Source: a virus (taxonomy: Duplodnaviria > Heunggongvirae > Uroviricota > Caudoviricetes). Taken from it: a stretch of 41,798 nucleotides of DNA. A program made the position numbers and the translations under genes. Position 1 is the first letter of the stretch. The number at the start of each line of letters is the position of its first letter. The notes beneath the pieces were generated by a model. The model was not told the origin of the DNA and searched no databases. It worked only from the letters and a program-made list of their open reading frames with translations. The stretch is taken from IMG/VR virus record IMGVR_UViG_2563366805_000010, positions 1 to 41,798 of that record; one strand, written 5' to 3'. This document shows positions 6,491 through 19,443 of the stretch, piece by piece.

Positions 6491-6554
6491 ACAATAGCTA
6501 AAGCGATTATTTGAGTCAATCGCTTAAACGATAATTTATTTAGCTAAAGCGATA
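6491..6554 (-). promoter_or_regulatory. Leftward early promoter PL with operator cluster OL
   Basis: On minus strand TTGACT-17 nt-TATTGT; overlapped and flanked by three sites with ATCGC half-sites (atagctaaagcgatt, atcgcttaaacgat, ttagctaaagcgat) matching the OR operators. Confidence 0.5.
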
Positions 6555-6652
6555 ATTTTATGATTTATAAGATTATTTATTTGATTGGGAAATGTGCGAT
6601 GAAATGATATTAGCGAAGGAATTGGGGGAATTTTAATCAGGTCAGGAACAAT

Positions 6653-6672
6653 AAAAAACCCGGCAAGCCGGG
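6653..6672 (-). terminator. Rho-independent terminator downstream of cI
   Basis: GC hairpin CCCGG-CAAG-CCGGG followed on minus strand by a T-run, directly after the cI stop; A-run on the other side could make it bidirectional. Confidence 0.6.
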
Positions 6673-6673
6673 T

Positions 6674-7366
6674 TTATGCGAAGCGCTTGTACTCTATTGA
6701 TTGTCTTAGTAGCACTTTAGCCATTACGTAGAACTGATCTTCGTCTTCTGACTCAACATACCATTTCTCGTAGATAGGGTTGTCTGAGATGACAGCAAGC
6801 CGATCTCTTTGCATCTGAAGTCTTTTGACGTGCAGAGTTTTTCCGAACACAAATACGTAAACGCCATCACCATCAAAATGAGTCACGCCAGTATCAACAA
6901 AAATTTGATCTCCTGGTGAGATGGTTCCATCCATGCTGTCGCCGTTAACAGTGATAACTTTTACATTATCTGCGGGGCGGTTTCCGAAAAGTGCGCGAGC
7001 CTGTTCAGTTGTGTATTCGATTGCTCTTATGGTTTCGATAAAATCACTGGTAACTAGCGAGCCAGGACCGGCGCTGGCCTTAACGTCAAGCACATCCACG
7101 CGGTAAACCTCATTCATAACTGGTTTAATTTGGCATAGCGTGTTTGCTTCGCGAATGCCAGATTCCAACATCTCACCTTGCCCCGTTGAAAGCCATTCAG
7201 GACGCACACCCAGAACAGATGCGATCTCTACTGTTTTTCGTGAGCCGTTCGCACCTTTAAGTAACTTATTTACGCTGGACTGAGCCATGCCTACATCTTT
7301 CGCCAGCCTAGCCTGCGTGTATCCAGCGACGTCCATTGCGTGCCCTAAGCGTTCTGAGAATCCCAT
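6674..7366 (-). CDS. cI: CI-type phage repressor (HTH + S24 LexA-like peptidase domain)
   Basis: 230 aa; N-terminal HTH (TQARLAKDVGMAQSSVNKL); C-terminal autocleavage domain with GDSM serine and KRL lysine; AAGAGG SD; divergent from cro. Confidence 0.9.
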   Translation of the reverse strand: MGFSERLGHAMDVAGYTQARLAKDVGMAQSSVNKLLKGANGSRKTVEIASVLGVRPEWLSTGQGEMLESGIREANTLCQIKPVMNEVYRVDVLDVKASAGPGSLVTSDFIETIRAIEYTTEQARALFGNRPADNVKVITVNGDSMDGTISPGDQIFVDTGVTHFDGDGVYVFVFGKTLHVKRLQMQRDRLAVISDNPIYEKWYVESEDEDQFYVMAKVLLRQSIEYKRFA

Positions 7367-7393
7367 AAAAGCCTCTTTTTAAGTCCTCTTTAA

Positions 7394-7467
7394 ATAGTAT
7401 CGCCAAGGCGATTGTTTGGCAAAGAATCGCATAGGCGATTGACAATCGCTAAAGTGATATACATAAT
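7394..7467. promoter_or_regulatory. OR region: divergent PRM and PR with three palindromic operators
   Basis: PR TTGACA (7439-7444)-17 nt-CATAAT rightward; PRM on minus strand TTGCCA-17 nt-TACTAT leftward; operators ATCGCCAAGGCGAT (7399-7412), ATCGCATAGGCGAT (7426-7439), ATCGCTAAAGTGAT (7445-7458). Confidence 0.6.
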
Positions 7468-7494
7468 CGCTTTAAACTGATAGCTGAGGTGATT

Positions 7495-7728
7495 ATGAAG
7501 AACCCCGCAGTAGAAAAAGCGATTGCCCTTGTCGGTAGTCAGAAAGAGTTAGCTAAACGCTGTGGAAAGGCTCAATCAACGATCTGTGATTGGTTGAACG
7601 GGAAGAAGCGTATTTCTCCTGTTCATGTCCCAGACCTTGTTAATGCCGTTAACGGAGAGATTCAGGCATACGAATTTCGGCCTGATCTTCCATCCATTTT
7701 TCCACATCCAAATAACCACGCCATTTAG
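7495..7728 (+). CDS. cro: Cro-like HTH repressor
   Basis: 77 aa; HTH segment QKELAKRCGKAQSTICDWLNGKK; GAGG SD; first gene of the PR transcript. Confidence 0.8.
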   Translation: MKNPAVEKAIALVGSQKELAKRCGKAQSTICDWLNGKKRISPVHVPDLVNAVNGEIQAYEFRPDLPSIFPHPNNHAI

Positions 7729-7769
7729 TCAAACCAGTGGCGTAACTCACTTTATGAGGATTATCACCC

Positions 7770-8090
7770 ATGGAGAACGCAATCGCACGAAAGTTAGACC
7801 CGCCAGTTATCAATCCGGTTGAGATCGAAAGCGTCCTGCTCAACCGGCTTGCATCAGTGGGCCAGAAGTCTTACGCCGAGCATATGGGCATCAGCGAGTC
7901 GACAGCCAGCAGGCGTAAAGCCGAAGGGCATTTCAGCACCATGGCGAAAGAGCTGGCCTTCCTGGGGATTCAGGCCGCACCACCGGAAGCAGTGCTGGTA
8001 TCGCGTGAATATCTGGCCTCAGTCGAAACGCTCGCTGATATCGGGCTGAAAGCCGAACGGGCAAGGCCGGGGCCGCTGGGGTGGGATTAA
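7770..8090 (+). CDS. cII: CII-like transcriptional activator
   Basis: 106 aa; IESVLLNRLASVGQKSYAEHMGISESTASR resembles lambda CII (IESALLNKIAMLG...); position after cro. Confidence 0.8.
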   Translation: MENAIARKLDPPVINPVEIESVLLNRLASVGQKSYAEHMGISESTASRRKAEGHFSTMAKELAFLGIQAAPPEAVLVSREYLASVETLADIGLKAERARPGPLGWD

Positions 8091-8093
8091 ACC

Positions 8094-8349
8094 ATGAACC
8101 ATATCGAATTCATCGAAAAGCATGTGCGTGAAGAACTGCTGAAGCTCGGTTTCTCTCTGGGTGTGGCTCAGGGGGGGGGCGTTCCAGGCTATCGACATGT
8201 ACAAGCGCATGAGCCAGGCAAGCAGAAAGGGGAAGATTTTTGATGATGTTTTACGGCACGCAAAACTGTGGGCGGAGAAGCAGCAGTTACCCGCTGACCG
8301 CTTTGAGAAGCGAAAAGTTAAACGGAACGCCCAGCCGGGCCTGTTCTGA
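8094..8349 (+). pseudogene. Hypothetical gene split by a G9 homopolymer frameshift
   Basis: ATG 8094 opens a 49-aa frame that passes through nine G at 8171-8179 and stops at 8241-8243; the +1 frame continues to 8349; loss of one G gives a continuous ~84-aa ORF. Confidence 0.4.
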
Positions 8350-8427
8350 AAAGGCGAAAGCCGCTGTGCACGAACACAAGCGGCTCTCAGGTGCAACAAA
8401 CGTCAGTAAATTGCGAGGTTAATTCTA

Positions 8428-8592
8428 ATGCCAAAGAGCAAAAAGTACCAGGAAAATGAGGAACGACGCCTTCAGGATTCCCCTGACGGGCTGGTGGTTG
8501 CCGCGTCAAAAAACAGGGCGTTCGCCGAACGTCTTGTTGGCGTGATCCGTCTGGCTCTCGCTACGTCGGGAGTGAAAAATGGGCGTCGTTAA
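8428..8592 (+). CDS. Small hypothetical protein (54 aa)
   Basis: Below track cutoff; ATG with GAGG upstream; 3' end overlaps the O-like gene start. Confidence 0.3.
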   Translation: MPKSKKYQENEERRLQDSPDGLVVAASKNRAFAERLVGVIRLALATSGVKNGRR

Positions 8593-9469
8593 GTTAGCAG
8601 ACTACAGGCCGCCGCTGGAGGTCGTGGAGCATCGCGTGGCGCAGCTGGAAGATGGTTTTACTCGTGTTGCTAATGAGCTTCTCGATGCTGTCATGGCATC
8701 CGGACTAAGCGAAACAGAGCTGTGTGTCGTCCTCGCTGTTTGGCGCAAGACGTACGGCTACAACAAGAAGATGGACTGGGTTAGCAATGACCAGCTTGAG
8801 CAGATGATTGCCAAGCATCACACACACTGTTCGACTGCAAAAAATCAGCTTGTTGCCAAAAAAGTCTTGGTCCAGGAGGGGCGTAGCGTGGGTATGAATA
8901 CCAGCATCATCGAGTGGAAAACAAAGATTAACGGATTCTGCAAAACATTAGCTAAACCTGCTAAGGATTCTTTAGCGGAAGTTGCTAATAAAAACTTAGC
9001 TGAAAGTGCTAAGGAAACATTAGCGGAAGGTGCTAAGGATGATGGTGAAACCTTAGCAGAATCTGCTTTTGAAACTAAGCAGGATCTGCTAACCACAAAA
9101 GACAATATACAAAAGACAATAAACAATACCCCCCTACCCCCAGAGGGGGAGTGTGTCGGGCAGGAAGAAAAACCTGTCACAAAGAAAACTCAGATCGACT
9201 ACCAGGCGGTGCTGTCTGCATACAACACCACCCTGGGAGACCGCCTTCCCCAGGCAGAGGCACTAAACGACAAACGTCGCCGTGCTATCAAACGCCTGCT
9301 GACCGAACTGAAAGAGCCAACCGTCGAGGCGGTGGAGAATTACTTCGCCGCTTTCGCTGAGCGAGCACCAAAGTTTTACTTCGGTGAGAACGACAGAGGC
9401 TGGCGCGCCAGTTTCGATTATCTGTTGCGCTCTGACACCCTGCTGAAAACCAGGGAGAAAGCGCTATGA
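8579..9469 (+). CDS. Replication initiator (lambda O-like replisome organiser)
   Basis: N-terminal EDGFTRVANELLDAVMASGLSETELCVVLAVWRKTYGYNKK typical of the phage replisome-organiser N-domain; iteron-like repeats inside the gene; followed by helicase. Confidence 0.8.
   Translation: MGVVKLADYRPPLEVVEHRVAQLEDGFTRVANELLDAVMASGLSETELCVVLAVWRKTYGYNKKMDWVSNDQLEQMIAKHHTHCSTAKNQLVAKKVLVQEGRSVGMNTSIIEWKTKINGFCKTLAKPAKDSLAEVANKNLAESAKETLAEGAKDDGETLAESAFETKQDLLTTKDNIQKTINNTPLPPEGECVGQEEKPVTKKTQIDYQAVLSAYNTTLGDRLPQAEALNDKRRRAIKRLLTELKEPTVEAVENYFAAFAERAPKFYFGENDRGWRASFDYLLRSDTLLKTREKAL
8946..9067 (+). repeat. Iteron array (putative origin) inside the O-like gene
   Basis: About five tandem ~24-bp units with core TTAGC(G/T)GAA..GCTAAGGA encoding LAExAK repeats; followed by an A-rich stretch and a CCCCC-AGAG-GGGGG hairpin at ~9129-9150. 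Confidence 0.55.
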
Positions 9470-10863
9470 CCGACATGAACATGATCCCGCAGAACATCGA
9501 AGCCGAACAAAGTGTGCTGGGCGGCATGATGCTGGATAGCGGTAGCGATCGCTGCCAGACCGCCATGTCGATGCTCAAACCAGAATCGTTCTACATCCGC
9601 CCCCACCAGGTGATTTTCGCCGAGATGCGGGAGCTGGCAGCCAACCAGAAGCCTATCGACCTGATCACCCTGATTGAGTCGCTGGAATCTAAAGGGCTTG
9701 GCGAGCAGGCTGGTGGCTTCGCTTACATGGCCGAGATATCCAAAAACACTCCCAGCGCGGCGAACATCGTTCACTACGCCATGCTGGTGCGCGAGAAAGC
9801 CATGGAGCGTTACGGCATTGACAAGCTGAACAGCGCCACCGAGCTGCTGTATTCCCGCAACGGGATGACCACCAGCCAGAAGTTTGACGCTATTCAGACC
9901 CTGTTCACTGATATCGCTGACTACGCGAAAACCGGTAACCGCCGGGGGCTCCGCGAGTTTTCGGAAGTGATGGGCGACTGGGTGGACGAGGTGGAAGCGC
10001 GCTGGAGCGACTCAGACGCAACGCGTGGACTGTCGACGGGGATTGGCTCGCTGGATGACCTGCTGCAACCGAAAGGACTGGTTAAAGGCGCTCTGATGGT
10101 GATCGGCGCACGTCCGAAGATGGGTAAAACCACGCTGTATAGCCAGCTGGCCGTCAACTGTGCCGAAGTTGAGCAGCTCCCCGCGCTGATGTTTAGCCTC
10201 GAAATGCCGGATAAGCAGATTGTGGAGCGCATGGTGGGGCAGGTGAGCCGCGTAAATACCGATGTGTTTTATGGCGATCGGTACGACGACACAAAAGTCG
10301 CAATGGCCTTTGCTGCCGCTGGACGGCTGGCCCAGAACGGAAACCTGTACGTCGACGACACGCCCGGGATCACGCTGGCGCATATCGTCGCAGAGTCACG
10401 TCGCATCAAACGCGAACGCGGCGCTGTCGGCATGGTGCTGGTGGACTATCTGACCCTGATGACCGCCGACAAGGCTGACCGTAACGACCTGGCCTACGGG
10501 ATTATCACGAAGGGGCTGAAGAACCTGGCGAAGGAACTGAACTGCATCGTGGTGCTGCTTACCCAGCTGAACCGTGATCTGGAGAAGCGCACTAACAAAC
10601 GCCCGATGCCGAGTGATTCCCGCGACACCGGGCAGATTGAGCAGGATTGTGATTACTGGATCGGCATCTACCGCGAAGGCGCATACGACGAAAACGCAGA
10701 TCAGGCGGCTACCGAATTGCTGTTGCGCCTGAACCGCCACGGCCCGACCGGCGTTGTGTATTGCGACCAGCGCAACGGTGCGATCTACGACTGTGACCAG
10801 GCTGCTGCTGAGCAGAAACGCCGCGCGAATGATGCCAGACCCAACAAAAAGAGGGAATTTTGA
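9466..10863 (+). CDS. dnaB: DnaB-family replicative helicase
   Basis: 465 aa; Walker A GARPKMGKTT, Walker B region VLVDYLTLM; N-terminal DnaB-like domain. Confidence 0.9.
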   Translation: MTDMNMIPQNIEAEQSVLGGMMLDSGSDRCQTAMSMLKPESFYIRPHQVIFAEMRELAANQKPIDLITLIESLESKGLGEQAGGFAYMAEISKNTPSAANIVHYAMLVREKAMERYGIDKLNSATELLYSRNGMTTSQKFDAIQTLFTDIADYAKTGNRRGLREFSEVMGDWVDEVEARWSDSDATRGLSTGIGSLDDLLQPKGLVKGALMVIGARPKMGKTTLYSQLAVNCAEVEQLPALMFSLEMPDKQIVERMVGQVSRVNTDVFYGDRYDDTKVAMAFAAAGRLAQNGNLYVDDTPGITLAHIVAESRRIKRERGAVGMVLVDYLTLMTADKADRNDLAYGIITKGLKNLAKELNCIVVLLTQLNRDLEKRTNKRPMPSDSRDTGQIEQDCDYWIGIYREGAYDENADQAATELLLRLNRHGPTGVVYCDQRNGAIYDCDQAAAEQKRRANDARPNKKREF

Positions 10864-18969: not shown

Positions 18970-19443
18970 ATGGCTGCATTAAAACCTGATGTGAAAGCCT
19001 TCATCATTCAGTCGCTTGCGTGCTATGACACGCCATCGCAGGTGGTCGAGGCTGTCCAAAAAGAATTCGGGATCAAGATTACCCGCCAGCAGGCTGAATC
19101 TCACGACCCCACGAAGGCCAGCGGTAAGACGCTCGCCAAAAAGTGGATCGAGATGTTCCACGCGACGCGCGAACGGTTCCTGACCGAAACCAGCGACATT
19201 CCGATAGCGAACAAATCCTATCGCCTCCGCGTGCTTGACCGCATGGCAACCAAAACCGAGGGGATGAAAAACTTCTCCCTGACGGCGCAGCTTATCGAAC
19301 AGGCCGCGAAAGAGGTTGGCGACGCTTACACCAATAAGCTGAAGGTTGAGAGCACTGGCAAGGATGGCGGCCCGATCAAGACCGAGACGACCAACCTCAC
19401 CGCAGATCAGGCCGCAGAGATTTACCGCAAGATGATGGGGTGA
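18970..19443 (+). CDS. Putative terminase small subunit
   Basis: 157-aa gene directly upstream of and overlapping the large terminase; basic, HTH-like N-terminus; assignment by position. Confidence 0.45.

Follow-up and report, generated by a model that had tools for sequence, protein, structure and literature searches.

A candidate poly-G contingency tract in a conserved early gene of temperate lambda-like phages

Phase-variable homopolymers are textbook material for bacterial surface genes, and to our knowledge they have been recognised in phages only lately and so far in virulent ones. Contingency loci are considered rare in mismatch-repair-proficient hosts, such as the hosts concerned here, which counts against the present locus being one, and the Campylobacter host of Fletchervirus is said to lack mismatch repair. 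In Campylobacter Fletchervirus, poly-G runs lie in receptor-binding-protein genes (Sorensen et al. 2021, Cell Rep 35:109214, cited through bioRxiv 10.1101/2025.10.21.683753), and the locus described here is like these in having an intragenic run within the range of 7–11 G in a phage gene, where changes of length shift the frame and create phenotypic subpopulations. Those phages are virulent and the genes are structural genes for host recognition, whereas the present gene is an early gene beside the replication genes of a temperate lambda-like prophage, and the evidence for it is entirely population-genomic. A second comparison is with the contingency loci in T2 agt and T4 rIIA (Gomez, Barrick and Waters, bioRxiv 10.1101/2025.10.21.683753), in which, as would be the case here, coding homopolymers frameshift reversibly through polymerase slippage. 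These loci have been proposed to hedge bets against host defences and to occur in genes of every functional class (bioRxiv 10.1101/2025.10.21.683753). T2 and T4 are virulent and use their own DNA polymerase, their runs are of at least 6 bases, and reversion was measured at about 10,000-fold above that of a point mutant; the present tract, known from genome comparison, consists of a longer run of G's, persists across genera down to 41–45% protein identity and is OFF in about half of its natural copies. The word temperate is absent from that preprint (bioRxiv 10.1101/2025.10.21.683753), and prophage is mentioned in it once.

Outside phages, the phase-variable simple-sequence-repeat (SSR) genes of Campylobacter, Neisseria and Haemophilus (for example PMC4965091, PMC5084427) share with this locus an intragenic poly-G of at least 7 that sets ON or OFF by frame, tract lengths that differ among close relatives, and a mixture of ON and OFF in populations. 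Such genes are chromosomal and mostly concern surface structures or restriction-modification, unlike the present gene, which belongs to a mobile prophage, is silent in lysogeny and has a small, cytoplasmic-looking product. The G7/G8 run of herpes simplex thymidine kinase is similar in that gain or loss of one G inactivates a viral gene, with low-level frameshifting on the run still yielding a little product (PMC5009743), but there it is drug treatment that selects for the indels, and no role as a conserved switch is known for the run. Searches of the literature covered did not find an earlier description of the present tract or gene, and PMC6286511 deals with host genes only. The tract has the sequence-level features of a contingency locus, and its mechanism would be the same as in Fletchervirus, T2 and T4. 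We favor reading it, with a probability of roughly 0.6, as a selectively retained, contingency-type poly-G ON/OFF tract in a conserved early gene, in the OFF state in the genome studied.

The split gene, its setting and its family

The window, by which we mean the whole stretch of 41,798 bp that was analyzed, contains on its plus strand a hypermutable G9 tract, GGGGGGGGG, at positions 8171–8179. No other homopolymer in the window reaches 9, the next longest G or C runs being of 6, and the tract occupies codons 26–29 of an open reading frame that begins with the ATG at 8094. That frame crosses the run and is closed 21 codons past it by the TGA at 8241–8243, so that the frame open in the window (8094–8243, plus strand) encodes a truncated 49-aa product made of family residues 1–28 and 21 out-of-frame residues. 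The +1 frame, open from 8161, reaches the TGA at 8347–8349 and holds the 56 C-terminal codons, Ala29–Phe84, with the stop codon (8179–8349, plus strand); the additional G of the tract puts these codons at +1 with respect to the start. Deletion of one G, giving G8, restores a single ORF of 255 nt and 84 aa; in the context of the window G8 is the in-frame length, as would be G5 or G11. The last codons before the stop (8332–8346, plus strand) specify a C-terminal pentapeptide, QPGLF, that is similar to a beta-clamp-binding motif; the product of the OFF state lacks it. The run, the interrupted frame, its continuation to 8349 and the 84-aa product of G8 are all as in the initial annotation.

The gene starts 3 nt past the stop codon of a cII-like activator gene (7770–8090, plus strand; Pfam Phage_CII 1.2e-5, phrog_725 2.4e-33) in an early rightward operon ordered cro, cII, split gene, orf54, O and DnaB-like helicase. 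A pR-like promoter, TTGACA-17-CATAAT, lies upstream, 5′ of cro (7439–7467, plus strand), with 11 of 12 consensus matches, and an S24/CI-type repressor gene (6674–7366) lies opposite the operon. The O-like replication initiator (8579–9469, plus strand; PF04492, 1.5e-32) is followed 3′ by the DnaB-like helicase gene (9466–10863), assigned from the RefSeq annotation of identical loci. The gene therefore does stand between cII and the replication initiator, as had been annotated, with the addition that a 54-aa ORF of phrog_1331 (8428–8592) intervenes between it and the O-like gene. That small ORF shares 14 nt with the beginning of the O-like gene, an overlap suggestive of coupled translation with the replication initiator. 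A scan of 7400–8900 for promoters and terminators returned nothing beyond the pR-like promoter and one weak terminator-like site on the minus strand at 8519–8531. The window overall resembles a complete, intact prophage with a lambda-like early region, and that early region is 100% identical over 3,451 bp to E. coli TOK-001 (AP018395.1). A 397-aa ORF at 1–1194 is assumed to be the integrase, and the large late ORFs at 19440–40421 are taken to be virion structural genes. The remainder of the window is prophage-like and intact, with long unbroken ORFs, and because the neighborhood is intact the split is not part of a general decay of the prophage.

The protein restored with G8 matched the phrog_4439 profile with E = 2.1e-34, residues 1–73 aligning with positions 1–73 of the 74 in the profile; the match spans the junction, and the fused gene is real. 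A search of protein collections with the restored protein found 309 clusters across the Enterobacteriaceae, mostly of 84–85 aa, from E. coli, Citrobacter, Enterobacter, Klebsiella, Salmonella, Raoultella, Atlantibacter, Pantoea and others. The initial annotation had suggested such a search with the fused sequence, and had reasoned that homologs ending at the same position, together with reads uniformly of G9, would speak for two genuine short ORFs; instead, the fused 84-aa form is the norm of the family. The family protein is highly conserved, with a mean column identity of 84–86% and a near-invariant motif, VAQGGA[FY]QA, across clusters. In RefSeq both forms are annotated, the intact 255-nt gene in E. 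coli 730V1, LHM10-1 and CP52E and a 49-aa stub in TOK-001, ET846 and EC2001 (WP_016243550.1). In PHROGs, phrog_4439 is a family of unknown function with no functional assignment; searches of the restored protein against Pfam and PADLOC gave zero matches, and NCBIfam gave one insignificant match (E = 0.051), far below its cut-off.

Tract length and tract conservation in natural copies

An exact-sequence look-up in NCBI, JGI, ENA and Logan found the 84-aa G8 product on 361 contigs and the window's 49-aa G9 product on 328; in the same four sources G11, with a product of 85 aa, was found on 14 contigs and G5, with one of 83 aa, on 3. In a search limited to one genome per species, loci were recovered by peptide patterns 3′ of the tract and hence blind to frame, and 11 of the 26 loci so found were in frame (nine with G8, one with G11, and one with G9 in an AGG context). 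The other 15 were out of frame, with G6 in two, G7 in six, G9 in three, G10 in three and, in the last, G8 together with a separate indel. DNA-pattern scans that permitted any tract length gave G7 in 10, G8 in 24, G9 in 16 and G10 in 1 for IMG/VR, and G7 in 6, G8 in 9 and G9 in 4 for metagenome contigs. Among complete E. coli genomes, 10 hold the region and 9 cover most of it, these 9 being divided equally among G7, G8 and G9 (three each). When the frame-blind samples are pooled, about 43% of loci are in frame, with a mode of G8; the comparison of related prophages that had been recommended at first reading thus returned lengths varying from G6 to G11. Three deposited sequences are out of frame at the DNA level (Citrobacter phage Omnitron, Klebsiella phage 5 LV-2017 and ST16-OXA48phi5.1), and in Kpn_R1 the match falls into two pieces at the level of tblastn. 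Homopolymer length may be mis-called in some long-read assemblies. The E. coli ET846 chromosome (NZ_CP100895.1) has two copies of the region, one of which is G9 and OFF, and the 83-aa, in-frame G5 variant WP_370559855.1 is probably its second copy. Metagenome assembly PPYF01, with contigs carrying G8 and G7, was considered as a case of heterogeneity within a sample and was rejected, the contigs belonging to two unrelated phages.

Tract length changes among very close relatives, and the frame toggles with it, as at contingency loci: G7, G8 and G9 occur at 99.8–99.9% identity over 3.4–5.2 kb. Compared with the window over positions 6500–9950 (3,451 bp), TOK-001 with G9 is 100% identical, E. coli 730V1 with G8 is 99.88% identical and ES6 with G7 is 99.80% identical, and an additional G7 locus is 99.79% identical over 5,196 bp. 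Gene sequences that are identical when the tract is excluded bear G8, G9 and G10, or G7, G8 and G9, and among pairs of sequences no more than 2 nt apart, 61 of 93 differ in tract length. On a neighbor-joining tree with 129 distinct loci as tips, parsimony requires at least 51 changes of length; for the ON or OFF state of the same tips it requires 33 changes, against a mean of 37.6 (range 32–43) when states are shuffled. The ON/OFF state is essentially uncoupled from the gene tree. As a polymorphism between genomes, length switching appears to be fast relative to substitution.

By base composition alone the G9 run is unremarkable, since 28 of 100 dinucleotide-preserving shuffles of the window yielded two or more G8 matches, which is what one G9 run produces. 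That it is non-random follows from the comparative evidence, because the tract is kept and its length varies across homologs. Mononucleotide runs are generally avoided in coding sequences (PMC1378130). Here the run lies inside an ORF and is kept rather than eroded by synonymous change, as is characteristic of contingency loci. Codons were counted in 76 unique in-frame genes from loci retrieved without any nucleotide requirement at the tract, and Gly27-Gly28 was GGG GGG in 74 of them, the exceptions being one GGA GGG and one non-synonymous disruption. As a control, the invariant Gly19 was GGG in 6 of the 76 (8%); in the long ORFs of the window GGG makes up 19% of Gly codons, and none of 20 Gly-Gly dipeptides is encoded by GGGGGG. 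Fourfold sites flanking the tract are near saturation, with entropies of 1.7–1.9 bits. G8 is kept in Serratia phage BZS1 and Yersinia phage YeP1 at 41–45% protein identity, and Serratia genomic loci have the run as well; phage EKP1 has G6, and Erwinia phage Midgardsormr38 lacks the tract. The codon position of the tract is unchanged beside O/DnaB, O/P, toprim-primase or KilA-N modules, and in YeP1 no replication gene follows; because the downstream replication modules differ among homologs, the tract travels with the gene. By these patterns, purifying selection at synonymous sites has maintained the pure-G tract through deep divergence.

Two loci have, immediately beside the run, a 1-nt deletion of a kind that would compensate for a G9. 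In locus L053 (CGTTCCAG to CGTTCAG) the frame is restored with G9; Omnitron (locus L010, CP115737.1), with AATCCAG at this place, carries G8 and has thereby lost the frame once more. Frame-restoring deletions beside G9, as in L053, imply that the out-of-frame states are real and that the protein is selected for.

The switch reading and its alternatives

Under the favored reading, slipped-strand mispairing during DNA replication would gain or lose G's in reversible steps of one. G8 (or G5 or G11) would give the full protein, the ON state, and G6, G7, G9 and G10 would put everything past Gly28 out of frame and leave a short peptide that is presumably inactive, the OFF state, which with G9 and a 49-aa product would be the state of the window. 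The tract would be retained because reversible switching is useful, that is, as a contingency or bet-hedging locus; we infer this because the run is kept against synonymous erosion and its lengths are tight around 8. The likely reason would be that the protein aids lytic development in some hosts and is costly elsewhere, as a toxin or as a trigger of defence. The initial annotation had offered three explanations, of which a sequencing or assembly error fails as a general account, with the G9 product on hundreds of contigs and each of four frame-blind samples about half out of frame; a plainly decayed gene fits poorly with an operon and prophage that are otherwise intact and with a pure-G run kept against synonymous interruption; and a slippage-prone on/off tract is borne out by G7, G8 and G9 in near-identical prophages and by states uncoupled from phylogeny.

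The strongest alternative is a mutational hotspot with passive decay, in which the G run would be kept for an unrelated reason, possibly a decoding requirement for GGG-GGG or an RNA or DNA sequence element, and frameshifts would be neutral or mildly deleterious in repressed lysogens, with no adaptive switch. We consider this unlikely overall, but it is a serious rival in the form of neutral drift at such a hotspot while the prophage is repressed. The gene lies in the CI-repressed pR operon and hence is without selection during lysogeny, so that OFF copies in repressed prophages could be the product of such drift, and deposited phages bear OFF alleles, from which the gene would be dispensable. 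The proportion in frame, at about 43%, is near to, and only modestly greater than, the 33% expected from a frame-neutral random walk, and because of this small difference selection for ON may be weak. There is also a second nucleotide-level constraint in the same gene. The stretch AAGGGGARGATTTTTGATGATG at 8227–8248 is likewise conserved at the nucleotide level, with Gly46 encoded by GGG in 71 of 76 genes and Asp50 and Asp51 almost always by GAT; some non-coding constraint thus acts within the gene and might also explain the G run. Against this alternative, purely harmful frameshifts would favor synonymous interruption of the run, yet GGG GGG persists almost without exception (74/76) next to neighboring sites that are saturated. 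Lengths cluster tightly at 8, and G5 and G6, which would be expected to act as stable sinks, are rare. Furthermore, the compensatory indels that restore frame indicate selection for the protein, and the tract accompanies the gene and not any particular replication module.

The conserved stretch AAGGGGARGATTTTTGATGATG resembles a Shine-Dalgarno sequence followed by ATGATG in the third frame (ORF 8240–8422), and in the G9 frame it supplies TGATGA stops. The third-frame ORF 8240–8422 has no conservation in distant loci. A switch with three outputs through stop-start overlaps (in G7, ATGA at Met39; in G9, TGATG leading into ORF 8240–8422) was considered and rejected, first because the ATGA needs Ser40 to be AGC, which is present in 45 of 103 genes, and secondly because in distant loci ORF 8240–8422 is either closed or unrelated.

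Programmed recoding is a less probable alternative again. In this case RNA polymerase slippage or ribosomal frameshifting would produce full-length protein from G7, G9 or G10, or an extra truncated product from G8; the length of the tract in DNA would be of little consequence, and its role in recoding would explain why the run is conserved. Such a mechanism would account for the many lengths tolerated in nature; CA-G GGG GGG is formally an X XXY YYZ heptamer on which both Gly-tRNAs can re-pair after a −1 slip, and low-level frameshifting on a G7/G8 run is what rescues frameshift mutants of herpes simplex thymidine kinase (PMC5009743), so that a low level of similar rescue may occur here. However, different out-of-frame lengths would need shifts in opposite directions, and the frame-restoring compensatory indels argue that out-of-frame alleles are not fully functional. 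Genes with true programmed frameshifts have their segments offset in essentially all homologs, whereas the modal state here is a single in-frame ORF of 84–85 aa with G8. Folds of 8180–8250, 8140–8240 and 8165–8300 gave z-scores of +0.48, +0.08 and −0.88, none of them indicating a frameshift-stimulating RNA structure 3′ of the tract. Slippage of E. coli RNA polymerase is documented for runs of at least 7 T, or of more A (PMC6260861), and not for G runs; by that rule, which calls for a long A or T run, the present run of G would not be a slippage site. Pairing of the tract with the upstream UUUCUCUCU was also tried and rejected, being no better than in shuffles, and the UUUCUCUCU stretch is not conserved in Klebsiella loci.

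It is quite improbable that the run is primarily a nucleic-acid element, such as a stretch of rG/dC that forms an R-loop or a primer, or a site of pausing, ahead of the origin in the O gene, with its overlap of coding sequence being incidental. The run does lie 400 bp 5′ of the O-like gene, its G's being on the strand that is not the template for transcription from pR, and an element of this kind would tolerate variation in length, but the same codon position is kept whatever module lies downstream, including in YeP1 with no replication gene after it, there is no significant local structure, and the tract is absent from the Erwinia homolog. That the window itself is in error, with a true tract of G8 and an intact gene, is scarcely credible even though homopolymers are error-prone on several platforms, since TOK-001 is 100% identical over 3,451 bp including the G9, ET846 and EC2001 are also G9, the exact G9 product was found on 328 contigs from four sources, and lineages with a compensating deletion beside G9 show that G9 existed in real DNA.

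The protein, a neighboring element and the meaning of a possible switch

An AlphaFold2 model of the restored protein, built with 72 homologs, has helices at residues 3–18, 22–42 and 48–64 that form a three-helix bundle (mean pLDDT 74.6), followed by a basic tail modelled as disordered, with pLDDT below 50 at residues 68–82. A profile search of the PDB gave nothing below E = 0.36, and a Foldseek comparison of the model with the PDB gave nothing below E = 2. A Qxx[LM][FL] motif stands at the extreme C-terminus of 125 of 132 full-length homologs, as QPGLF in 54 and QQGLF in 42. In bacteria, clamp-binding motifs have the consensus QL[SD]LF, and MuC from phage Mu has the validated form QPDLF (PMC12867686). 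QPGLF agrees with QL[SD]LF at positions 1, 4 and 5, has Pro at position 2 as in MuC, and has Gly rather than Ser or Asp at position 3. The predicted bundle, with its disordered basic tail ending in QPGLF, may bind the host beta sliding clamp, a guess to which the motif leads. MuC, whose QPDLF mediates its binding to the clamp and which is lethal when overproduced (PMC12867686), illustrates how a clamp-binding protein may be both useful and costly. The likeness is that of small phage proteins with a terminal QPxLF (QPDLF in MuC, QPGLF or QQGLF here); there is no relationship of sequence or fold, and the two differ at position 3, where the present family has Gly. An early protein that binds the clamp could plausibly benefit lytic growth yet carry a cost under leaky expression, and switching would then have a rationale.

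The 78-nt spacer 3′ of the split gene contains a conserved two-hairpin element at 8347–8415, with hairpins at 8356–8388 and 8393–8414. Compensatory changes occur at 5 of its 12 predicted pairs. The minus strand folds with a minimum free energy of −28.4 kcal/mol (z = −3.9, compared with z = −1.0 for the plus strand), was the more stable strand in 28 of 32 loci, and has 402 of 416 paired cells versus 379 of 416 on the plus strand, where A-C mismatches correspond to G-U pairs on the minus strand. Read on the minus strand, the element has a GC-rich hairpin and then GCCUUUU, where it ends at the stop codon of the split gene, and a −10-like hexamer, TAGAAT or CATAAT, at 8427–8422 of the same strand overlaps the start codon of the 54-aa ORF. 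It is possible that the element is an oop-like antisense sRNA of about 65–70 nt from the minus strand, and in place and size it resembles the lambda oop antisense RNA. No Rfam family was found in 6500–9500, the two-hairpin element included.

More tentatively, and as a possibility that we hold well below the retained ON/OFF tract itself, the locus may be an anciently conserved and selected early-operon switch of temperate lambda-like phages of mismatch-repair-proficient Enterobacteriaceae that toggles a clamp-engaging protein, so that each lysogen lineage or burst would give a mixture of phages and hedge replication takeover, the choice between lysis and lysogeny, or recognition by defences, possibly together with the adjacent antisense-RNA-like element acting on expression of the replication genes. 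The 84-aa early protein is very widespread and merits a test for clamp binding or for action as a defence trigger. If the reading as a switch is true, there would be a rule for annotation, that several hundred hypothetical genes of Enterobacteriaceae prophages now called "frameshifted" or split are one phase-variable gene. If the tract is a selected switch, contingency loci would extend to temperate phages, to the early regulatory and replication region, and to hosts in which mismatch repair is intact.
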